A stretch of 64,000 bases of DNA from an uncultured Roseibium sp. Its GTDB lineage: Bacteria; Pseudomonadota; Alphaproteobacteria; Rhizobiales; Stappiaceae. Position 1 is the stretch's first letter. Each line of letters opens with the position of its first letter. Positions 7,999 to 64,000 of the stretch are shown here, piece by piece. Below the pieces are notes generated by a model, which was given only the letters and a program-made list of their open reading frames with translations, did not search any database and was not told the DNA's origin. The DNA lies in the NCBI RefSeq assembly GCF_947494555.1, contig NZ_CANLVF010000006.1, forward strand, positions 101,374 to 165,373. The letters are read 5' to 3'. A program made the position numbers and the translations under genes.

Positions 7999-9180
7999 TC
8001 AAACTGTACTTCTCATCTGTTCATTTATGTTCTGGATATAGGTGCTGTTTCTTTTCGTAAACGAGGCCAGCCATTCTCGTTTCTGGTCACTGTCCACCGA
8101 TCGCTCTGATGACAGGTACTCCGCCAATTGCATGGCAGCTTTTTCAGGATAAGCATCCAAATGCAGAACGACGCCTTCCGGTATTTCATCCGAGAAGCTT
8201 GTGGAGTTCACGGCAACCGCTGTCGTGGAAGCAAAGCGAATGTTCTTGATAAGCGCCCCTTCGATCGACGCCGACCAGAAGGACGGCGAAAGGACGACTT
8301 TGCAGGACGAGACTGCGTCTCTAAGCCCGCTCGTCCAACTCATCTGAACAAAGGAACAGTTTTCAGGTGCATCATCGACATCCGCAGGACACTTGAACGG
8401 AAACAAGAATGAAAGCTGCGGCGCATGGCGTGCAACCGAAAGCGCCCAGCGGCTTCCTTTTGCAAGAACGTCGTTCCCGTGAAAGACGATATCCCACTGG
8501 GTATCGCCCGGCTTCGGCTCTTCGATGCCCTTTGTGCCTGCAATCAGGGACTCTTCAATGTCCGCTGTCCAAAGACCCACGACAGGCACAGGCATTCCAA
8601 ATTGCTGTTCGGCGAGCTTCGCCTGCCGTTCATTTTGCGCCAGAAATTGAACCTTCCCGGCGCGCGCGAGTGAATACAGCTTGCGAACAAACACAGTGGC
8701 GCTTGATGTCTGCCGGGGAAATGGCGAACACCCGTACATCTTGGCGGCATGCTGGTCGGGGTCGCCCAGGCATCTCAGACATGCCGCGTGTTCCATTGGC
8801 TGGTGGTTGTAGCTGCGGACGCAGAAGAAGCTCGACTCCAACAGGTAGATCCAGCAGTTCCCGCGCAGGAATTTAATGATCTTCAACGTCGCGGAAAACC
8901 CAAGGTCCTGCGGGTGCAGCAAGAGCACCGGCGTCTTTGACCTTCTCAGAAACCAGAGGCGGACAAAAAACAGGAGCCAACGCGGTGCGCCTTTCAGCCA
9001 CAAGAACAGTTCGCGAAAGACAGATCGGTCATCCCTCTTATCCAGCCTGGGACCCGGCTCGATGTACGGCAGTCCTTGCGCCACCAGGTAAGCCACCAGC
9101 TGACCGGTTCCGGACTTTCCCGCCGGGATCCCGCTGACGACTGCAAAATCACCTGAGACATTCGGCGCGGCACCGCTCAA
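7999..9180 (-). CDS. Putative GT-B glycosyltransferase-like protein with a Cys cluster
   Basis: Operon position (overlaps the rfbF stop); C-terminal VLSPSFWSASIEGAL resembles the GT4 donor-binding region; FFCVRS...CLRC...GCSP Cys cluster. Confidence 0.5.
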   Translation of the reverse strand: MSGAAPNVSGDFAVVSGIPAGKSGTGQLVAYLVAQGLPYIEPGPRLDKRDDRSVFRELFLWLKGAPRWLLFFVRLWFLRRSKTPVLLLHPQDLGFSATLKIIKFLRGNCWIYLLESSFFCVRSYNHQPMEHAACLRCLGDPDQHAAKMYGCSPFPRQTSSATVFVRKLYSLARAGKVQFLAQNERQAKLAEQQFGMPVPVVGLWTADIEESLIAGTKGIEEPKPGDTQWDIVFHGNDVLAKGSRWALSVARHAPQLSFLFPFKCPADVDDAPENCSFVQMSWTSGLRDAVSSCKVVLSPSFWSASIEGALIKNIRFASTTAVAVNSTSFSDEIPEGVVLHLDAYPEKAAMQLAEYLSSERSVDSDQKREWLASFTKRNSTYIQNINEQMRSTV

Positions 9181-9965
9181 CGGATATCCCTCCAGACCTT
9201 CCAGGGGGCATCACCGCTTTGCCATAGGTTTTCCAGATACTGCTTTTCGCGCAAGGTATCCATCGGTTGCCAGAACCCCTCGTGAACGAAGGCCGACATC
9301 TGGCCATCGTGCGAAATGCCCTTCATCGGAGCCTGTTCCCAAGGAGTGTCCTCGATATCAGGAGCCTGAAGATATGCTTCGATCTTCGGTGAAAGCACAA
9401 AAAAACCACCGTTGATCCAGCCGCTTTCCCCTCTGGGTTTCTCCACGAAGCCACTCACTTTTGTGTCTTCTATTTCAACCGCGCCGAAACGGCCGGGCAG
9501 CCTCACTGCAGTAACCGTTGCGAGGCGGCCTTCCTTGCGATGAAAAGCGATGCTCTCGGTGATGTCGATATCGGACAGACCATCGCCATAGGTCATGCAG
9601 AAATCGCTGTCACCCACATAAGGCAGTATCTTCTTGATCCGGCCGGCCGTCTGTGTGTTCAGCCCCGTCTCGATAAGCGTGATTTTCCAGGGTTCGGACC
9701 TGTTTTCGAGCAGCTCCACACCGCCGTTTTTCAGGTCTATCGTGACGTTTGATACATGCATCAAGTAGTTGGCAAAAAACTCCTTGATCATGTAACCCTT
9801 GTATCCGAGGCATATGATGAACTCGTTGATCCCGTGCGCGGAATACATCTTCATGATGTGCCAGAGGATCGGTTTGCCACCGATTTCGACCATTGGCTTT
9901 GGCCGGGTGACCGTTTCTTCGGCCAGCCTTGTTCCGAGCCCCCCCGCCAGAATTACCGCTTTCAT
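9177..9965 (-). CDS. rfbF: Glucose-1-phosphate cytidylyltransferase
   Basis: AVILAGGLGTRLAEET..PKPMVEIGGKPILWHIMK, TYGDG, WINGGFF, FWQPMDTLR. Confidence 0.95.
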   Translation of the reverse strand: MKAVILAGGLGTRLAEETVTRPKPMVEIGGKPILWHIMKMYSAHGINEFIICLGYKGYMIKEFFANYLMHVSNVTIDLKNGGVELLENRSEPWKITLIETGLNTQTAGRIKKILPYVGDSDFCMTYGDGLSDIDITESIAFHRKEGRLATVTAVRLPGRFGAVEIEDTKVSGFVEKPRGESGWINGGFFVLSPKIEAYLQAPDIEDTPWEQAPMKGISHDGQMSAFVHEGFWQPMDTLREKQYLENLWQSGDAPWKVWRDIR

Positions 9966-51798: not shown

Positions 51799-53298
51799 AT
51801 GCAAGATTCCCGGCTTCTGTTAGCGACCTCGATCGGCCTCTGCGCCGTTATCGGTTTTTGGGGTGTCATCGACCCGGCAAGTTTGCAAGCGATCGCAAAG
51901 GAAATCGTCGACCAGTATTTCTTCAGCCGCGGCTGGTTCGTCATGTTGTCCGTGACGCTCATGCTGCTCTTCTGTCTCGGGCTGACTGTCACGAAATACG
52001 GTGACATTCGACTTGGGGCGGACACAGACAGGCCAGAATATTCGACACCCACATGGATCGCGATGCTCTTCGCCGCGGGCATGGGTGTCGGTCTCTTGTT
52101 CTGGGCGGTCGCCGAGCCGCTCACACATTTCTACTTCGCAAAGGACTTTCTGCCGACACCGCTTGCGGCCGAACAAGCCCTGCTTGCCGCAAACTTCAAC
52201 TGGGGCATTCACGCCTGGGCCATCTATGGCACGACAGCGCTGACAATTGCCTATTTCAGCTTCCGGCGCGGGACTCCCATGCTGGTCAGCGCGCCGGTGA
52301 AGAACCTCTTTCCCGGCGAAAGCTGGGCGACTGCCGTCGGCTGGTTTTCAGACTTCATGGCAATTGCGGCGATCGCCATCGGGGTCGGCGGCTCAGTTGC
52401 AATGGGGGTGTTTCAGGTCGCCGACGGGGTCACGGTGCTCTTTGGCGGCGACGTGACGCCGTCCTGGCTGGTCGCTGCCGTTTTCTTCCTCATGATTGCG
52501 GCCTATATCCCGCCTCTTCTTGTTGACCTCGGTAGCGGGATGGCCCGCCTGTCCAACATAGCCATGGCGCTTGCGATCGCGCTTGTTGCCTATACGGTCA
52601 TTCTCGGGCCTTCCGAGTTCCTGCTGAACTCCATCATCGGCGGCATCGGGAACTACGTGGCGGAAGTTCTCCCGCGGGGGCTGCAGACTTTCACGTTTTA
52701 CGGGGACGAAACCAGTAAGTGGTTCCAGGACTGGACGCTCACCTACATGGTCTGGTGGATTGCCTGGGGACCGTTTGTCGGGGTTTTTGTTGCCCGTATT
52801 TCCAAGGGCCGGACGATCCGGGAGTTCGTTCTGGGCGTCTTGATCGGCCCAACCCTTTTCTCAACCATCTGGTTCGGTGCCTTTGGCGGCGTCGGTCTTT
52901 ACGAATCTCTGGATGGCCAGGGCGAACTGCTTGCGATGACGCAGACCAATGTCGAGCGCATGACCTTCGCGCTTCTGGACCGGTTGCCGCTTGCCACATT
53001 GACCACGCTTGTAACGATCGCCGCAGCGTTCCTTTTCATCGTCACGAGCGTCGTCAGTGCCGCCTTCGTGCTCGGCATGTTCTCGACCGGTGGCAATCCC
53101 GACCCGAGCGCAAAGGTGCGGGTCATCTGGGGCGGCCTCCTCGGCGTGTTGGGCGCCGCCATGATCCTGTCGGGCTCCATGAACGCTGTCAAAACACTGA
53201 TCGCGCTCGGAGCCCTGCCATTCGTTTTCATCACCGTTCTCCTGATGACGTGCCTGATCCGAGCGTTGTTGCAGGACAGTCAGGAGAATAGGCAATGA
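51799..53298 (+). CDS. BCCT-family (betaine/carnitine/choline) transporter
   Basis: WIAMLFAAGMGVGLLFWAVAEP, NWGIHAWAIY, WTLTYMVWWIAWGPFVGVFVARISKGRTIREF. Confidence 0.92.
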   Translation: MQDSRLLLATSIGLCAVIGFWGVIDPASLQAIAKEIVDQYFFSRGWFVMLSVTLMLLFCLGLTVTKYGDIRLGADTDRPEYSTPTWIAMLFAAGMGVGLLFWAVAEPLTHFYFAKDFLPTPLAAEQALLAANFNWGIHAWAIYGTTALTIAYFSFRRGTPMLVSAPVKNLFPGESWATAVGWFSDFMAIAAIAIGVGGSVAMGVFQVADGVTVLFGGDVTPSWLVAAVFFLMIAAYIPPLLVDLGSGMARLSNIAMALAIALVAYTVILGPSEFLLNSIIGGIGNYVAEVLPRGLQTFTFYGDETSKWFQDWTLTYMVWWIAWGPFVGVFVARISKGRTIREFVLGVLIGPTLFSTIWFGAFGGVGLYESLDGQGELLAMTQTNVERMTFALLDRLPLATLTTLVTIAAAFLFIVTSVVSAAFVLGMFSTGGNPDPSAKVRVIWGGLLGVLGAAMILSGSMNAVKTLIALGALPFVFITVLLMTCLIRALLQDSQENRQ

Positions 53299-55864: not shown

Positions 55865-56860
55865 TCACATCTTGTCGGTGACGGCCGTCGATGTCGCGCC
55901 TTCAGGTGCCTTTGTGATAACCGGGTCGGAACCGCCTGCGAGCAAGGACTTAACCGTGCGGTCGTAGGCAGACATGTCGAGTTTGCCATCAGAGCCGTCG
56001 ACCAGCTTGACGATCTCGCCAACCATGCGAACCTGATGCTTTTCGGTCTGGGCGCCGGTAGCATCATTTTCCAGAACGATTTCCGCTGCTTCTTCAGGGT
56101 TTTCCGCTGCATAAGCCCAACCCTTCATGGAAGCACGTACGAACCGCGCCAGCTTGTCGACCATCGCCGGATCGTCCAGGCTTTCTTCCAGCACGTAGAG
56201 ACCGTCTTCCAGCGTCGCAACACCCTGGTCTTCATACTTGAAAACCACAAGTTCCTCCTCCGGAATGCCGGCATCGATCACCTGCCAGTATTCGTTGTAG
56301 GTCATCGTTGAGATACAGTCCGCCTGTTTCTGCAGGATCGGATCCACGTTGAAGCCCTGCTTCAGAACAGTGACACCCGCATCACCGCCTTCTGTCGGAA
56401 TTCCGAGCTGGCTCATCCAGGACAGGAACGGATATTCATTGCCGAAGAACCACACGCCGAGCGTTTTGCCTTTGAAGTCGTCCGGCGAGGTAATGCCGGT
56501 GTCCTTGCGGCAGGTCAGCATCATGCCCGACTTCTTGAACGGCTGCGCGATATTCACAAGCGGCACGCCCTTTTCGCGCGAGGCCAGCGCAGACGGCATC
56601 CAGTCGATGATCACATCAGCACCACCGCCGGCGATCACCTGAGGCGGTGCAATGTCCGGACCGCCCGGCTTGATGGTGACGTCGAGGTCTTCTTCTTCAT
56701 AGAAGCCCTTGTCCTTGGCAACGTAATAGCCGGCAAACTGGCCCTGCGTGACCCATTTCAATTGCAATGTCAGTTCATCTGCTGCCTGTGCGGCCCCGGA
56801 CATCAGGCCCATGCCAAGTGCTGATACAAGCGCGAGACTTTTTATTGTCTTCATTGCCAT
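55865..56860 (-). CDS. NMT1/THI5-type ABC substrate-binding protein, likely pyrimidine-binding
   Basis: Signal peptide; LQLKWVTQGQFAGYYVAKDKG, PGGPD, QGFNV, TMTYNEY, GWAYA. Confidence 0.85.
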   Translation of the reverse strand: MAMKTIKSLALVSALGMGLMSGAAQAADELTLQLKWVTQGQFAGYYVAKDKGFYEEEDLDVTIKPGGPDIAPPQVIAGGGADVIIDWMPSALASREKGVPLVNIAQPFKKSGMMLTCRKDTGITSPDDFKGKTLGVWFFGNEYPFLSWMSQLGIPTEGGDAGVTVLKQGFNVDPILQKQADCISTMTYNEYWQVIDAGIPEEELVVFKYEDQGVATLEDGLYVLEESLDDPAMVDKLARFVRASMKGWAYAAENPEEAAEIVLENDATGAQTEKHQVRMVGEIVKLVDGSDGKLDMSAYDRTVKSLLAGGSDPVITKAPEGATSTAVTDKM

Positions 56861-57194: not shown

Positions 57195-59042
57195 TCAGGA
57201 CGTCGCTGCCGTCTCCAGGACGCCGGGTGCGGCATGCAGCAGCTCAACGATCCGGTTCAACAGGTCCTTTCGCTCGTTGCTGCCGTCAGCCGAATAGTTG
57301 AGGTTTTTGAACAAAGAGGTCTGTTCGGTGAAGAACTTGCGCACTGCGTCCTTGTCCCCAAACGCAAAGTCGGTCTTGGCAATCTTGTAGACCAGATCGA
57401 ATGTCTCCTGCTGGCGCGCCAGCGGCGCGGACACGTCAACATCATCAAACGCATCCTGCTGCAGATAGACCATATCGAGAAACAGTGCCTTCTGCTGAAG
57501 CACGAAGTCCTCGGTCGAGACCCCTTCTTCGCCCGTTACCTGCATCATGCGTGTGATCTCATCCCCTTTTCTCAGAAGTTCGATCATCTCCTCGACGCGC
57601 GGCACCCAGTCAGGACCGATATTGTTCTCATACCAGTCGCCAAGCTGGCTGTGGTAGCGCGACCAAGACAACAGCGGATCGACCGCGGGATAAAACCGCT
57701 TGTAGGCCCGCTCCGAAGAAAGCCCGAGGAACGTCTTGACGGTCCCGAGCGTGGACTGCGTTACCGGCTCTTCGAAATTGCCGCCGGCCGGAGACACCGT
57801 GCCGATCATGGTAAGACTTCCGGTCTCGCCGCCCGCCGTCCTCAGAACACCGGCACGCTCGTAAACGCCCTTGATGGCTGAGTCGAGATAGGCGGGAAAT
57901 GCTTCTTCGCCCGGAATTTCCTCAAGACGGCCGGAGGTTTCGCGCATCGCCTGCGCCCAGCGAGACGTGCTGTCGGCGATCAGCAAAACATCATAGCCCA
58001 TCTGGCGGTAGTACTCGCCCAGCGTGATGCCTGTGTAGATCGAGGCTTCGCGGGCGGCGACCGGCATCGAGGACGTATTGCAGATGATCACCGTCCGGTC
58101 CATCAGCGTTCCGTCTCCCGAAGGGTCCGGCTGATGCGGAAATTCCGTGATGGTTTCCACGACTTCGCCGGCCCGTTCTCCACATGCAACGACAATCACG
58201 ATGTTCACCGCGGAAAATCGCGAGATCAGGGATTGCAGGACCGTCTTTCCGGCACCGAACGGTCCCGGGATACAGCCCATTCCTCCACGGGCAATGGGAA
58301 AGAACGTGTCAATCAGGCGCAGCGTGGTTATCAGGGGTTCGCTGGGATAAAGCCGCTCACTTTGCCCGGCCTTGACGAGCCCTTCGGGAAGGGCGCGCCG
58401 TACAGGCCAATGCTGAACCATCGTCAGATCGCGGGTTTCACCGCGATCGTTCTTCAGTGTGATCACGACTTCGCTGATGGTGAAGGTGCCTTCCCGAACC
58501 CTTTCGACGGACCAGCTTCCCGTCATAGAGAACGGCGCCATCACCTTGTGTTCGAAACGGCCTTCCGGCACCGTGCCGAGCGTGTCTCCCGCTTTGACGG
58601 GATCACCTGCCTTGACCTTCGGCTCAAACGCCCATTTGCGAGTTTCATCCAGGACATTGGTCAATACACCCCGGGGCAGAAAGAATCCGTGCTCAGCGGC
58701 AATTTCGGCGAGCGGGTTCTGAAGGCCGTCGAATACGGTGCTGAGCAGGCCCGGTCCGAGGGCAACGGACAGCATTTCACCGCTCTGGATAACCTTGTCG
58801 CCCACGCGGACACCGGCCGTGCTTTCAAAAACCTGCGCCTCGGCCGACTTGCCCCGCACGCGCAGGACCTCGGCCTTCAGATATTCCCGGGGTTTGCCCT
58901 CGCGCTCGGGTCCGTGCGGAATGATGTACACCACTTCGTTCTTGATGAGCGGCGCGTTTTCCAATGGCGAAAGCGTCACAAGATCATCCTGGACGGCGAT
59001 GATTTCGGCAGTCGGTTCCGGAAGCTGAACATGGCTTGTCAT
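57195..59042 (-). CDS. V/A-type ATPase catalytic subunit A
   Basis: GPGLL, FDGLQNPL, WPVR, P-loop GPFGAGKT, ACGERAGE, NTSSMPVAAREAS, DSTSRWAQAMRE, EEAFPAYL. Confidence 0.95.
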   Translation of the reverse strand: MTSHVQLPEPTAEIIAVQDDLVTLSPLENAPLIKNEVVYIIPHGPEREGKPREYLKAEVLRVRGKSAEAQVFESTAGVRVGDKVIQSGEMLSVALGPGLLSTVFDGLQNPLAEIAAEHGFFLPRGVLTNVLDETRKWAFEPKVKAGDPVKAGDTLGTVPEGRFEHKVMAPFSMTGSWSVERVREGTFTISEVVITLKNDRGETRDLTMVQHWPVRRALPEGLVKAGQSERLYPSEPLITTLRLIDTFFPIARGGMGCIPGPFGAGKTVLQSLISRFSAVNIVIVVACGERAGEVVETITEFPHQPDPSGDGTLMDRTVIICNTSSMPVAAREASIYTGITLGEYYRQMGYDVLLIADSTSRWAQAMRETSGRLEEIPGEEAFPAYLDSAIKGVYERAGVLRTAGGETGSLTMIGTVSPAGGNFEEPVTQSTLGTVKTFLGLSSERAYKRFYPAVDPLLSWSRYHSQLGDWYENNIGPDWVPRVEEMIELLRKGDEITRMMQVTGEEGVSTEDFVLQQKALFLDMVYLQQDAFDDVDVSAPLARQQETFDLVYKIAKTDFAFGDKDAVRKFFTEQTSLFKNLNYSADGSNERKDLLNRIVELLHAAPGVLETAATS

Positions 59043-59782
59043 GAAGAGGCTCCCTCGAGCGGTGGTGACGTGGTTGAGAGAAAGTCTGTTTGAACCTGCG
59101 CCTCGGTGGCATTCGAACCCTCAAGCGCTGCCGCAACCAAAGCTTCAAGACGGTTGCGCGCATCGGTTTCGTCGTAGCGCGACCAGCGTTCGACAATCAC
59201 CCAGCGCAAGACATAGATGGCAACGGCTTCGAAATCGAATTCGTGCAAGGCGCCGTAGTGGTCGAGTTGACGGAACACCTGGGTCAGCGTCAGCCGTTCC
59301 ATGGCAATATGGTCACCTGCCTGCATCAGGCGATGCGCCTCTGCGATCCACGGCATGAAATGCCCGAGCCCGAAGGCCGGATCGCTCCAGTTCGCCTTGA
59401 CCTGTGCGCACCAGCGGCCATAACCCCACAGCGCGATGTCTCCAGCGGCTTCCTGGCCGTCCCTCCGCCTGCGCAGGGCTGCGATCAGGGTTCTGGTCTC
59501 CATTCGCGTGCCGACCAGGTGCTGCAGATCCGGATACTCCTTCAAGTCGTCAATGACTTGTTTTGCGCGCCGAACAACCTCCAAGTCCTGATCATATTTC
59601 GCAACACCGGCCCATGCAGTGATTTCGACCAGCTCCCGCAGAAATTTCCTGTGATCCGCTTCCAGCATCGACAAGCGCTGCCTTAGCCGGAATTCGGATA
59701 TCGGAACCTCTTTGCGGGTAAACAATTCGCCCAGATGCGGAAGGCTGGTGACGAGCGCGATATATTGGTGCGGTGCAGACAT
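59039..59782 (-). CDS. DUF2764-family protein (V/A-ATPase subunit C-like)
   Basis: QYIALVTSLP N-terminus, FDFEAVAIYVL C-terminus; position between E and A. Confidence 0.75.
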   Translation of the reverse strand: MSAPHQYIALVTSLPHLGELFTRKEVPISEFRLRQRLSMLEADHRKFLRELVEITAWAGVAKYDQDLEVVRRAKQVIDDLKEYPDLQHLVGTRMETRTLIAALRRRRDGQEAAGDIALWGYGRWCAQVKANWSDPAFGLGHFMPWIAEAHRLMQAGDHIAMERLTLTQVFRQLDHYGALHEFDFEAVAIYVLRWVIVERWSRYDETDARNRLEALVAAALEGSNATEAQVQTDFLSTTSPPLEGASS

Positions 59783-59784
59783 GG

Positions 59785-60486
59785 CTACCGGAGAACCCCT
59801 TCCATCACCGCGCGCAAACGCGGCTGAAGGTGGCGTTTCAGCAAGCTTGCGATTGCCTCTTCGGTGAGATCGATGGAAACATTCCGCTCGGTGAGCTTGA
59901 CCTTGATGCCGTCAAATCCGGGGGCGGTGGAAAATGTGACACCGTCGCGCAACGCCTCGCCTGCAAGCGCGATGACGAAGTGAGTGAGTGTTCCCGGTTC
60001 GACCGCCTCTGGTGACTGCTTCAACTCCTCGAACGTCACGACCTTTTCCGGCAGAATGATCTCCATCGGCTCCGTGTCACTGACAGATGCGTTGTCCTTG
60101 GCGTTGCCAGCCATCGCAAGAATGAGCTTTTGCAGATATTGCTGATCGCCGAGCGTCGTCCCCACAAGCCGGCCCGCTTCCTGCTGGATCCGGTCGCCGA
60201 GTTCATTTCTGAGGCTCAGAACCAGATCCCGTGCGGCAACCTTCAATCCGTCTTCGGTCGCCGCCTTCTCCTTTGCCGCTTCTGCCCGTGCTTCGCTGAG
60301 AAGGGCATCCGCTTTCTTCTGCGCATCATTCACAATGTCCTCGGCCTTAGCCTTGGCCTTGGCAAGGATTTCCTCGCCCTCGGTTTGGCCGGCAGACACG
60401 CCTTCCGATTTCAAACGTTCGATCAGAGCCTGGACACCAGCCCCGGCCGCGTTTTCAAGATCGTTCGTCTCTTTGTCCCTGGACAT
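59785..60486 (-). CDS. V/A-type ATPase subunit E (peripheral stalk)
   Basis: LIERLKSEGV, charged helical A/K/E-rich N-terminus, DLTEEAIASLL..HL.PR; operon context. Confidence 0.8.
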   Translation of the reverse strand: MSRDKETNDLENAAGAGVQALIERLKSEGVSAGQTEGEEILAKAKAKAEDIVNDAQKKADALLSEARAEAAKEKAATEDGLKVAARDLVLSLRNELGDRIQQEAGRLVGTTLGDQQYLQKLILAMAGNAKDNASVSDTEPMEIILPEKVVTFEELKQSPEAVEPGTLTHFVIALAGEALRDGVTFSTAPGFDGIKVKLTERNVSIDLTEEAIASLLKRHLQPRLRAVMEGVLR

Positions 60487-60495
60487 GACCGCCTC

Positions 60496-60945
60496 CTAAC
60501 TCGGGATCGAACCGGCCAGCACCAGCGCGAAGACAAGAGCGAAGACGGAAAACCCCTCGAGCACTGCCGCAGGGGCGAGAGAGATCCCGAAAATCTCGGG
60601 CTTCGCCTTGGAGGCGTGGATCGCCGAAGCGAGCACCTCGCCCTGACGGATCCCGGTGACAAGCATCGTGAACCCGGACAAAACACCTATGCCGAAAAGT
60701 GCCGCACCATTTGCTGCATCCACACTTGATTGCTGCAACGAGAACATGATCACGATGCCGTAGATCACCTGAGATGAGGGCATGAGTGAAACACCGATGA
60801 AACGGCCGTAACCGCCGTCACTGTCCAACATGGCGCCGATCGCGGCACTGCCGCCAAGCGCGCACCCCCAGGCACTGCCGATCGCCCCAAGGGCAACCGG
60901 CGCATAAAGCCCGAACCAGCCGAGAGCCACAACGAATTCGTTCAC
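60496..60945 (-). CDS. V/A-type ATPase rotor subunit K (duplicated 4-TM proteolipid)
   Basis: GTG start 60945 with GAGGAG RBS, overlapping the subunit I stop; PSSQVIYG, GIRQG, VLEGFSVF. Confidence 0.9.
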   Translation of the reverse strand: MNEFVVALGWFGLYAPVALGAIGSAWGCALGGSAAIGAMLDSDGGYGRFIGVSLMPSSQVIYGIVIMFSLQQSSVDAANGAALFGIGVLSGFTMLVTGIRQGEVLASAIHASKAKPEIFGISLAPAAVLEGFSVFALVFALVLAGSIPS

Positions 60946-62735
60946 AGGCGTGTCTCCTCTTTCTTGAACGGACGGAAAGGCTTGCCTTCGTCCTTCAAAC
61001 CCCAATTAAAAAATTCAATGACATTCAGACGCAATCCATGAACACAGCCGGCAATCAGACCGAGCCCGATGTTGATCGCATGGCCGATCGCAAGCACGAG
61101 GATTGCTATCAGAATGCCGATGCCGGGAACCGCCTGATTAAGCTGTCCGGACAGCGAGTTGATTGTCTCCGCCAGCGAGGCGGCGGCAAGACCCAGGGCA
61201 AACAGGCGCATGTAGCTCAAAACATCGGAGAAGATGTTGACGATCCTCGCAAGTGCCGCCAGACCGTCGAAAACGCGCAGTCCGCCGGATGACACGGAAT
61301 CGACCATCCGGTCGCTGCCGAAAAAGCCCACAAGGAGCAGGCCCACGACCACTGACACCGGCCCGATCGTCGCAAAGAGCGTTGCCTGACCCAAAAAGGT
61401 CGCGAGACCGCCGAGAGCGACAAGGCTCCAGCCAAGCGGCTGAAACCGGGCGCTTGGTGTTTTGGCGTTAATCGCACGCATGGTATTTGCCAGAACGATA
61501 TGAACAACGCCGATTGTCAGCGTGATCTTCATCATGACGTCGACATCTTTCAGATCGAGGATCTTGAGATGCGCCAGAAAGCTGCCCTGCGGCGGGGCGA
61601 TCCCAAAATAACTGCCCGTGGCAATTCCGAATGCCGTGGTCGAGATCATCAGCCAGGCCGACATGCGCAACATGCGCGTCCCGAGTTCGGAACCGCCAAA
61701 TCGCTTGCGGAAGAGGAACAGGACGAGCAACAGCAAAAGCCCGTAACCGGCATCGGTCATGATCATGCCGAAAAAGATGATGAACGACACATAGACGATC
61801 GCCGACGGGTCCCAGTCCCGGTAACCCGGCGTCTGGTAGAACGCGACCAGGTCTTCGCCGCCTTCCATGGAATGCGTGTTCTGAAGAAGTGTCGGCGGTT
61901 TGTCCTTGTCCGAGACCTGGTCGAACAAAACCGCTAGTCCGAGCGCACCGGCAAGGTCCTCAATCTCGGACACCTGGTCCTTGCGTGCCCAGGCCTGCAA
62001 CACGAAGACCCGTTCTCTGTCGGCCGTTTCAAGGCCGGCCCGATGCCGGGCAGAGCGGTCACGTGCCGCGGCAAGGTTCTGCGCCAGAACATAGCGCCAC
62101 TTCGTCAGAGACTGACGCTCCAGCTCAAGGTCTTCAAGTTCAATCGCAGCCTGTTCGTAACGATGGTGGAGTTGCGAAAGCGACAGCGTCCCCACATGAA
62201 CGCGCGGCACCGGCATGGCATCGGACGGTGGTTCTTCAGGCGACAGCAAAACCACATAGGCCCGGTATTTGTCACGGTGCACGATTTCCATGATCTTGCC
62301 TGCAGGATCGATCAGGTCGATTTTTCCATTCGGCACAACATAAAACCACAACCTGTTGTCGCCGATTTCCGCGAGGTCGGAAAAGCTGAATTCGCCCCAG
62401 GGCTCGACATCCCGTATCCGGCGTTCGAGCTGAGCAAGCCGGTCCTGACAGGCCTTCAGCGCCTTACGGTTCTGAAGGGCCTGCGGCACGATGGTTTCCA
62501 GATCGAAGTCATCTGAAACAGTCACAGGCCGCCGCTGCACCGGGCCCTCCACGAGCCAGCGCAAAGCCTCCACAGCTTCTCGCCCGAGCCCTTCCGGCAC
62601 CGCCTCCAGTTCCTTTTGCGCAGAACTGAGCGGGATCAGATGGAGAGACCCAAATGTCTGTGCGGCCTCCAACACCTTGTCCTTGTCATCCAGGATGCCG
62701 ATCAGATTGACCTTGACGAGAGGAACAATGGTCAT
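60942..62735 (-). CDS. V/A-type ATPase subunit I (a)
   Basis: PPTLL.N, FFGMIMTDAGYG, DVLSYMRLFALGLA (essential Arg), HGLRLNVIEFF. Confidence 0.93.
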   Translation of the reverse strand: MTIVPLVKVNLIGILDDKDKVLEAAQTFGSLHLIPLSSAQKELEAVPEGLGREAVEALRWLVEGPVQRRPVTVSDDFDLETIVPQALQNRKALKACQDRLAQLERRIRDVEPWGEFSFSDLAEIGDNRLWFYVVPNGKIDLIDPAGKIMEIVHRDKYRAYVVLLSPEEPPSDAMPVPRVHVGTLSLSQLHHRYEQAAIELEDLELERQSLTKWRYVLAQNLAAARDRSARHRAGLETADRERVFVLQAWARKDQVSEIEDLAGALGLAVLFDQVSDKDKPPTLLQNTHSMEGGEDLVAFYQTPGYRDWDPSAIVYVSFIIFFGMIMTDAGYGLLLLLVLFLFRKRFGGSELGTRMLRMSAWLMISTTAFGIATGSYFGIAPPQGSFLAHLKILDLKDVDVMMKITLTIGVVHIVLANTMRAINAKTPSARFQPLGWSLVALGGLATFLGQATLFATIGPVSVVVGLLLVGFFGSDRMVDSVSSGGLRVFDGLAALARIVNIFSDVLSYMRLFALGLAAASLAETINSLSGQLNQAVPGIGILIAILVLAIGHAINIGLGLIAGCVHGLRLNVIEFFNWGLKDEGKPFRPFKKEETRL

Positions 62736-63355
62736 AAGTCGGCCATCCTTTCCCCAGCTGCACGCGCCGCCGTCTTTCGCTTGGAAATCTTTGCCCGCAC
62801 CACCGCGTCACGCTCGGCATCGGCAAGTGCCATGCGGATCTTCTTGATGTTCCGCACCGCCCTTGGGATGAGCACTTTCTCGAACAAATTGACCCGCCGC
62901 GAGATGACGGCCTCGGCCTCGACGAGCTTTGCAATCCGTTCGCGGGCGACGTCGCGTTCCAGGTTGAGGCGAAGCAGATCCCGCATCCCTTCTACGTAGG
63001 GGTCGACCCAGTGCGGACGGGCGAGCAGCGAATAGCTTTCCGTTTCAACTTCAATATCTCCCAGAACAGGCAAGATCGTTCCAGAGAGGTTCTGTTCGCC
63101 CCTGACCGCCTCCTTCAGTCTCACCAAACCTTCAAGCGGGACATGTGTGTTGGCGATCATTGGCAACTTGGCCGCAAGATCCCTGAAACGCTGCTCATAG
63201 TCCCGATCCAGGCGCGCGAGTGTTTCTTTCGCCTTTGCCCGTTCCGCCATGATTTGAAGCCGCTTCAGCTCAAGCGACGGCAAGAAGCGTTTGTACTCGG
63301 CAAGCTGTGTGCTTTCCCTTGCAAGCGACGACTTGTTGAGCGCCAGTTTTGCCAT
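62732..63355 (-). CDS. V/A-type ATPase subunit D (central stalk)
   Basis: LPSLELKR, RRVNLFEKVLIP, IKKIRMAL.D.ER. Confidence 0.9.
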   Translation of the reverse strand: MAKLALNKSSLARESTQLAEYKRFLPSLELKRLQIMAERAKAKETLARLDRDYEQRFRDLAAKLPMIANTHVPLEGLVRLKEAVRGEQNLSGTILPVLGDIEVETESYSLLARPHWVDPYVEGMRDLLRLNLERDVARERIAKLVEAEAVISRRVNLFEKVLIPRAVRNIKKIRMALADAERDAVVRAKISKRKTAARAAGERMADL

Positions 63356-64000
63356 CAGGCGGCAGCCTCCTCGTCACCATCCGGCGCTTGTTTCTTGAGT
63401 TTTGGAAAGTACTTGTCGATCAATCCCTGTTTCATCAAAAGCTGCTCGGGCTCGAAACATTCGGCCAGCGTCTGCCAACAAAGGTCCAAAGCGTCCTCAA
63501 GCGGCCTGGTTACCTCGATATCCATGAAACGCTCGCGGAACAGCTCACCGAATTTCAGGAGCTGGCGATCATGATCGGAAAGTTCAAACGCCATCGACTG
63601 CTTCTGTTCGGCGTCGCGCGCACCGGAATAGAAACGGATCATGGTATTCATGATCTGATTGTGATCTTCCCGGGTGACCTTGCCGATCACATGCTGTTTG
63701 AGCCGCGACAACGAGCCGAAGGGATCGATGACCCCGCTATGAAGGTAGAACTGACCTTCGGTTATGTAACCGGTATTGTCCGGCACGGGATGGGTGACAT
63801 CATTTCCGGGCATGGTCGTGACGGTCAGAATGGTGACCGACCCCGAGCCCTTGAAATCACAGGCTTTTTCATACCTTCGCGCAAGCTGCGAATAGAGATC
63901 TCCCGGATACCCGCGGTTTGCCGGAACCCGCTCCATCGCAATGGAAACTTCTTTCATGGCGTCCGCGAATGCCGTCATGTCCGTGAGCAGAACCAGGACG
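63355..64000 (-). CDS. V/A-type ATPase subunit B, 5' part outside the window
   Basis: Frame open to the window edge ([14 protein letters not shown]); [40 protein letters not shown]. Confidence 0.93.

Follow-up and report, generated by a model that had tools for sequence, protein, structure and literature searches.

The rotor proteolipid NtpK of the V-type ATPase of Enterococcus hirae (2BL2) is a duplicated protein of four helices with a single glutamate on helix 4. According to the structural study (Murata 2005), as quoted in two papers, Na+ is bound by the side chains of T64, Q65, Q110, and E139 together with the carbonyl of L61, and Y68 belongs to the hydrogen-bond network of the site. T140, which follows the coupling glutamate, is absent from the ligand list as quoted. 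The literature on rotor rings formulates a general rule: all rings studied intrinsically prefer H+, polar ligands weaken this preference, and the ion that is in large excess wins. The Na+ coupling of I. tartaricus and E. hirae is attributed to three polar side chains that coordinate the ion, with no specificity coming from the a-subunit. The E. hirae ring is described as almost non-selective, and its pumping of Na+ is put down to the surplus of this ion. The A1AO ATP synthases of Eubacterium callanderi and Pyrococcus furiosus, which are archaeal-type enzymes of nine subunits, likewise have a single Na+ site for every four helices; a T/Q/Q/E/Y set of site residues is tabulated for P. furiosus.

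A seven-gene V-ATPase composed of subunits A, B, D, E, I, and K and a DUF2764-like protein occurs in Chlamydiae and Bacteroidota (PTOS_002482-88 in B. fragilis), and in the literature it is Na+-type by prediction only. The K subunits of Chlamydia (MPSSQSIY/QGK/VESF) and Bacteroides (PGTQGLY/RQGQ/PELY) are labelled 'Na+' in Additional file 1 of Mulkidjanian et al. 2008 (PMC2359735). Table 1 of that paper lists the genus studied here as having both V-type and F-type enzymes, and the additional file predicts 'H+' for the K subunit of Stappia (now Roseibium) aggregata IAM 12614 (gi 118434482), without a stated reason or experiment. The K subunit analysed here is 93% identical to the S. aggregata protein over 135 aligned residues, and the segments MPSSQVIY, GIRQGEV, and AAVLEGF are identical in the two. 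The published 'H+' label is thus the opposite of the Na+ coupling favoured both by an earlier reading made from the sequence alone and by the present analysis.

The window, which is the whole stretch of 64,000 nucleotides of Roseibium DNA that was analysed, contains a V-ATPase operon of seven genes on the minus strand in the order B-D-I-K-E-DUF2764-A. The first gene, identified by Pfam, is represented by the C-terminal part of subunit B (63355..64000, minus strand), and its start lies beyond the window end (G000:C6, L004 1729-3249, minus strand). The longest reading frame of subunit B, at L004 1729-3249, encodes 506 amino acids from a TTG codon and has an apparently non-homologous N-terminal extension of about 50 residues; a start at an internal Met (MLVSHTRIVDIV...) would yield a subunit B of typical length. 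The remaining genes, all on the same strand, encode the central stalk subunit D (62732..63355, 207 aa), the stator a-subunit I (60942..62735, 597 aa), the proteolipid K, the peripheral stalk subunit E (59785..60486, 233 aa), a DUF2764-like protein in the place of the C/d subunit (59039..59782, 247 aa), and the catalytic subunit A (57195..59042, 615 aa). Subunits D and A were identified by Pfam. Subunit E was assigned from its operon position, with matches to V-type subunit E models that were weak and below the cut-offs. The match of the DUF2764-like protein to PF10962 (E 5.7e-4, 20.1 bits) is below the Pfam cut-off of 24.1. Six V-ATPase subunits were recognised, with no C, F, or G gene among them, and the operon contains no further open reading frame. 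The E. hirae operon, ntpFIKECGABD, includes the C, F, and G subunits. Two reading frames downstream of subunit A were read from the sequence: one of 331 aa just beyond the operon (55865-56860, minus strand) as a periplasmic solute-binding protein, and one of 499 aa (51799-53298, plus strand) as a BCCT-type betaine/choline/carnitine transporter.

Subunit I has its best match among PDB structures in NtpI of E. hirae (8wci_P, E 6.7e-27), and the match to the Thermus protein has an E-value of 1e-14. The arginine helix, with the pattern SYxRLxALG, is kept: SYMRLFALG of subunit I aligns with SYTRLMALG of NtpI, and the membrane arginine is retained. Subunit I was considered as a marker of ion specificity and dropped, as the literature assigns the choice of ion to the ring. 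It is an intact stator partner of K and does not indicate the ion.

The K gene occupies positions 60496..60945 on the minus strand and is the fourth gene of the operon. The frame contains 149 codons and is free of stops. Its GTG start at 60945 and the TGA stop of subunit I, the gene before it, overlap by two bases (GTGA), and a GGAG sequence is located 7-8 nt 5' of the start. A longer reading frame of 169 aa, from a TTG at 61005, was rejected as an over-extension, because the close homologues, which are 148-151 aa long and cover 99-100% of the 149-aa reading, align from the GTG codon, and this codon has the ribosome-binding site and the overlap with the subunit I stop. The protein contains two ATP-synt_C hairpins (PF00137) and scores 153.9 bits against NF007200/PRK09621, a K subunit model of 141 positions with a cut-off of 108. 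This is the sole K model exceeded, and the other NCBIfam K models were matched below their cut-offs. Judged by its sequence, K is a V-type proteolipid in which the c-hairpin is duplicated to give four transmembrane helices.

In a phmmer search of K against all PDB chains, the top match was NtpK of E. hirae (2bl2, E 3e-8). The two proteins are 26% identical and their alignment contains a single gap, three residues long and located in the loop that joins helix 2 to helix 3, so that the helices forming the ion site are ungapped. The three motifs named by the sequence-only reading were located at residues 56-62 (PSSQVIY), 99-102 (IRQG), and 128-132 (VLEGF), and the alignment with NtpK that it proposed as a check bore out its ligand set residue by residue, in register, and conserved in the family. 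In helix 2, the site codons M55 to Y62 span 60760..60783 (minus strand), and their codons were checked on the sequence. M55 (60781-60783) corresponds to L61 of NtpK, where only the backbone carbonyl is a ligand, S58 (60772-60774) to T64, Q59 (60769-60771) to Q65, and Y62 (60760-60762) to Y68. In helix 3, where the codons R100 to E103 span 60637..60648, Q101 (60643-60645) corresponds to Q110. In helix 4 (60553..60558), the coupling carboxylate E130 (60556-60558) corresponds to E139, and G131 (60553-60555) takes the place of T140. The five side-chain positions of the NtpK site are therefore matched in K or, for the change of T64 to serine, conservatively replaced. K has the same three polar side chains as NtpK, plus the tyrosine. 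Two glycines that flank ligands in NtpK are changed in K, G63 to S57 and G66 to V60, in addition to the replacement of T140 by G131. S57 is at the ancestral position of the carboxylate, which is occupied by Glu in rings built of single hairpins. In helix 1, C28 (60862-60864, minus strand) within the segment GSAWGC is at least 97% conserved in the 80 family loci described below; it is at the position of V34 of NtpK, and a cysteine is present there also in chlamydial K (SAVGCG).

The sequence-only reading had described a single glutamate, that of VLEGF, as the carboxylate of the four helices. One coupling carboxylate per four helices, E130, is indeed present, but it is not the only glutamate in a helix, as helix 3 carries E103 (60637-60639, minus strand) two residues after Q101. 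E103 aligns with K112 of NtpK and, among the 80 loci compared, is restricted to Roseibium and Stappia, with Q, K, R, or H in other lineages. The possibility that it is a second coupling carboxylate, comparable to the two-carboxylate motif of F. nucleatum, was considered and discarded: it is at i+2 from Q101 and, being confined to Roseibium and Stappia, is not a conserved coupling residue. R100 and E103 flank the ligand Q101 (IRQGE) as a pair specific to Roseibium and Stappia, and elsewhere the segment reads [RYWKF]QG[QKR]. On the inner helix, the two residues may be linked by an i/i+3 salt bridge.

The glycine following the coupling glutamate had been raised as a caveat to Na+ binding. The concern is borrowed from the ES/ET motif of F-type rings, and it weighs little because T140 is not among the NtpK ligands as quoted. 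Moreover, the K subunits predicted to be Na+-type have Ser (Chlamydia) or Leu (Bacteroides) at this position.

The AlphaFold model of K, built on an alignment of 27 sequences, has a pLDDT of 93.3 and contains helices at residues 2-40, 47-70, 80-114, and 121-144. The best match to its fold in the PDB identified by Foldseek is 2bl2_A, with TM scores of 0.86/0.83 and an rmsd of 2.5 Å over 148 columns. However, eukaryotic H+ V-type c subunits superpose on the model nearly equally well, and therefore the fold does not discriminate the ion.

The site is almost invariant in the family. Among 121 K homologues with identities down to 66%, the columns of NtpK residues 61, 64, and 110 are invariant (121/121), the equivalents of Q65 and Y68 are kept in 119 and 120 sequences, respectively, and the E139 column in 119-120. 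The glycine after the coupling glutamate is present in 120 of the 121. A scan of one genome per species identified more than 515 loci encoding relatives, the best 80 of which were compared. The site columns are preserved in 73 of these 80 best loci, against a mean column identity of 81%. Among the 80 are loci of Roseibium and Stappia, Chromatiaceae (Thiocapsa, Thiocystis, Marichromatium, Halochromatium), Methylococcales (Methylomonas, Methylotuvimicrobium, Methylomarinum, Methyloprofundus), Woeseiaceae, Ca. Thiodiazotropha, Halieaceae, Cellvibrionaceae, Hoeflea, and a Planctomycetota MAG. The full gene order B-D-I-K-E-X-A was found in 68 of them, in Alpha- and Gammaproteobacteria and the Planctomycetota MAG, and most of the others have shorter stretches of that order on short contigs. 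In the tree of subunit A, the protein of the window falls within Roseibium, with R. album and two MAGs as its nearest neighbours, and the Stappiaceae group together in a single supported clade. Of 121 genomes sampled from the family, 57 were found to have subunit I, as were 46 of 60 genomes of the window's own genus. The placement in the tree and the frequency in the genus indicate that the operon has long been resident in this lineage.

The PSSQ motif is present in 73 of the 80 loci, and in the remaining seven it is replaced by PST[L/F]VIY, in which the equivalent of Q65 is lost (L072, L074, L085, L087, L089, L090, and L091, with K at about 9001-9444 in most). The six of these loci that could be placed in the subunit A tree form one branch with support of 100/99. 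The branch mixes Alteromonadaceae, Rhodovibrionaceae, and Hyphomicrobiaceae, with Aestuariibacter salexigens and Algihabitans among the hosts, which suggests that the ion site changed once and that the variant then spread laterally. The PSSQ...Q...EG site is also present in MAGs of Methylomonas, Methylococcus, and Thiocystis, many of which we take to be non-marine. Judged by organism names alone, loss of the Q65 equivalent does not track fresh water: the Q to L/F clade occurs under marine-type names (Aestuariibacter salexigens, Algihabitans, Alteromonadaceae), and the methanotroph MAGs keep the glutamine.

By mechanism, K would be a single-site, four-helix proteolipid of the NtpK type, and by family it groups with the seven-gene DUF2764-type V-ATPases. 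The chlamydial K shares with it the MPSSQxIY...QG...E site, and the Roseibium operon has A, B, D, E, I, and K genes and a seventh gene that would correspond to DUF2764, with a Pfam match below the cut-off. A feature that distinguishes Roseibium K is the near-invariant Gly beside the coupling Glu, where the K subunits of Chlamydiae and Bacteroidota have Ser or Leu; the orthologue from S. aggregata has been tabulated since 2008.

It is proposed that K subunits assemble into a ring in which each subunit would provide one mid-membrane ion site enclosed by helices 2, 3, and 4. Glu130, Gln101, Ser58, Gln59, and the backbone carbonyl of Met55 would make up the site, Tyr62 would keep the glutamate in place, and the same constellation binds Na+ in the K10 ring of E. 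hirae. Na+ in seawater exceeds H+ more than 10^6-fold by our own estimate. Given this excess and the polar character of the site, loading with Na+ and coupling to Na+ are the most likely outcome, and hydrolysis or synthesis of ATP would then be coupled to the translocation of Na+ past the conserved arginine of subunit I. We therefore consider it probable, with moderate confidence, that the rotor couples to Na+ in this marine host. An alignment argument of the same kind has been published for Halomonas and Bacteroides, and the inference is a routine one, concerning a widespread enzyme family and not a new mechanism. The literature searched contained no assay of any member of this K family. The distribution of the site speaks against Na+, since, to judge from the names of the organisms, its occurrence shows no relation to salinity. 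The changes from NtpK close to the ligands, to S57, V60, and G131, also count on this side.

The site could alternatively belong to a V-ATPase that pumps or uses protons exclusively, with the polar residues forming a hydrogen-bond cage that locks the protonated Glu130. The published in-silico 'H+' label of the S. aggregata orthologue (PMC2359735) agrees with this explanation, but it was given without reasons and conflicts with the 'Na+' label of K subunits sharing the ligand set: in the same table, Stappia (SSQ/Q/EG) is 'H+', and Chlamydia (SSQ/Q/ES) and Bacteroides (GTQ/Q/EL) are 'Na+'. The table also assigns 'H+' to M. acetivorans, whose enzyme was later reported to be coupled to both ions. 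A proton pump was argued in 2018 for the V-ATPase of an acid-soil Methylobacter, related to planctomycete operons, in a paper that notes how similar the motifs are among acidophilic, neutrophilic, and halophilic methanotrophs (PMC6119699). This enzyme probably belongs to the same family as the Roseibium one, and both Methylococcales and a Planctomycetota MAG are present in the 80-locus set. Proton coupling is also in line with the intrinsic H+ selectivity that the literature reports for all rings studied so far, and with the occurrence of the same site in taxa presumed from their names to live in fresh water or soil. The c subunit of the H+-type V/A-ATPase of Thermus thermophilus forms a V-type ring and also retains equivalents of the Gln, Glu, and Thr. 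However, this subunit consists of one hairpin only, which gives a site for every two helices, and it has Leu and Phe in the place of Gln59 and Tyr62, both of which are kept in Roseibium K; the Q to L/F clade resembles Thermus at the Gln59 position. The known Na+ rings have three buried polar side chains beyond the glutamate, and the excess of Na+ over H+ in seawater also stands against an enzyme restricted to protons. This explanation is regarded as quite improbable.

A less strict possibility is that the ring is promiscuous and would couple to Na+ in seawater at pH 8 and to H+ at low Na+ or low pH. According to the literature, Na+ enzymes move H+ when Na+ is absent, and the report on M. acetivorans describes the use of both ions by one enzyme. 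Lineages that share the identical site include marine, haloalkaline, and probably acid-soil ones, and Na+ may be bound less tightly than in NtpK owing to the Gly, Ser, and Val replacements around the ligands. Such promiscuity is considered unlikely, though less so than exclusive proton coupling, and its practical outcome in a marine host would still be coupling to Na+.

The direction in which the enzyme works is not decided by its sequence. The sequence-only reading had argued that the halved ion-to-ATP ratio of a four-helix proteolipid favours an export pump, but this argument does not hold, since the ratio is set by ring size. The number of ions per ATP equals the number of sites per ring divided by three, and the E. 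hirae ring, with its ten K subunits, transports 3.3 ions per ATP, inside the range of 2.66-5.6 quoted for F-type rings. Furthermore, c subunits of this type also occur in enzymes that make ATP: synthesis from 90 mV is reported for an A1AO enzyme whose V-type c subunit has one site per four helices, and rotor design alone therefore does not imply a pump. On the model of E. hirae, the analysis leans slightly towards ATP-driven extrusion of Na+ and energisation of the membrane, given that the genome also has an H+-type F1Fo synthase. The F1Fo is complete; its c subunit, the single F-type one encoded, has a proton-type AVTEALG site and lies in an atpI-a-c-b'-b operon.

Sodium-linked enzymes are encoded elsewhere in the same genome. 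The nqrA-B-C-D genes of a Na+-NQR (G000:C7:365013-369074, L006) all score above the NCBIfam equivalog cut-offs, and the genome also contains an NDH-1-type NuoL/M/N cluster (contig C9), a Mrp-like pair or cluster (C1), and NhaA (C5). The Na+-NQR, NhaA, and the Mrp-like cluster indicate that a sodium cycle exists in this genome. A further possibility, separate from the question of the ion, is that the enzyme serves mainly as an ATP synthase driven by the sodium-motive force of the Na+-NQR, a role that has been proposed in the literature for the related seven-gene enzyme of Bacteroides together with its Nqr. With ten sites in the ring, the computed reversal potential would be 155 mV at a phosphorylation potential of 50 kJ/mol and 187 mV at 60 kJ/mol. 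These values fall in the range assumed for a marine cell that respires and possesses Na+-NQR as well. However, the ring size is taken from E. hirae and not from Roseibium, and the standard route is already available through the complete H+ F1Fo and the NDH-1-type NuoL/M/N cluster. The V-type enzyme is a pump in E. hirae, which the literature presents as the sole characterised bacterium with both enzymes and a four-helix Na+ K ring. A main role in ATP synthesis is accordingly held to be a tentative, minority possibility next to the slightly preferred extrusion of Na+. A broader proposal, which we consider doubtful, is that the marine proteobacterial V-ATPases with the B-D-I-K-E-X-A order are Na+-coupled and work chiefly as ATP synthases powered by the sodium-motive force that Na+-NQR generates, and that the Q59 to L/F clade, exemplified by Aestuariibacter salexigens, is a natural switch to protons. 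If this were true, aerobic marine bacteria would possess a second, sodium-based route of oxidative phosphorylation, and the PSSQ and Q59 to L/F enzymes would be a matched pair for the study of ion selectivity in four-helix rings with Gly beside the coupling Glu.

The value of these results is modest and lies in exposing a conflict between the structural ligand rule and the published 'H+' label of a near-identical protein. The Q to L/F clade is a natural variant of the site and offers a comparison set within an easily testable family. If the Na+ reading is true, Roseibium and several hundred other Proteobacteria, among them purple sulphur bacteria, methanotrophs, Woeseiaceae, and Thiodiazotropha symbionts, would carry an ATP-linked sodium machine beside their proton F1Fo, which would bear on the exclusion of sodium or on the supply of ATP when the proton gradient fails.
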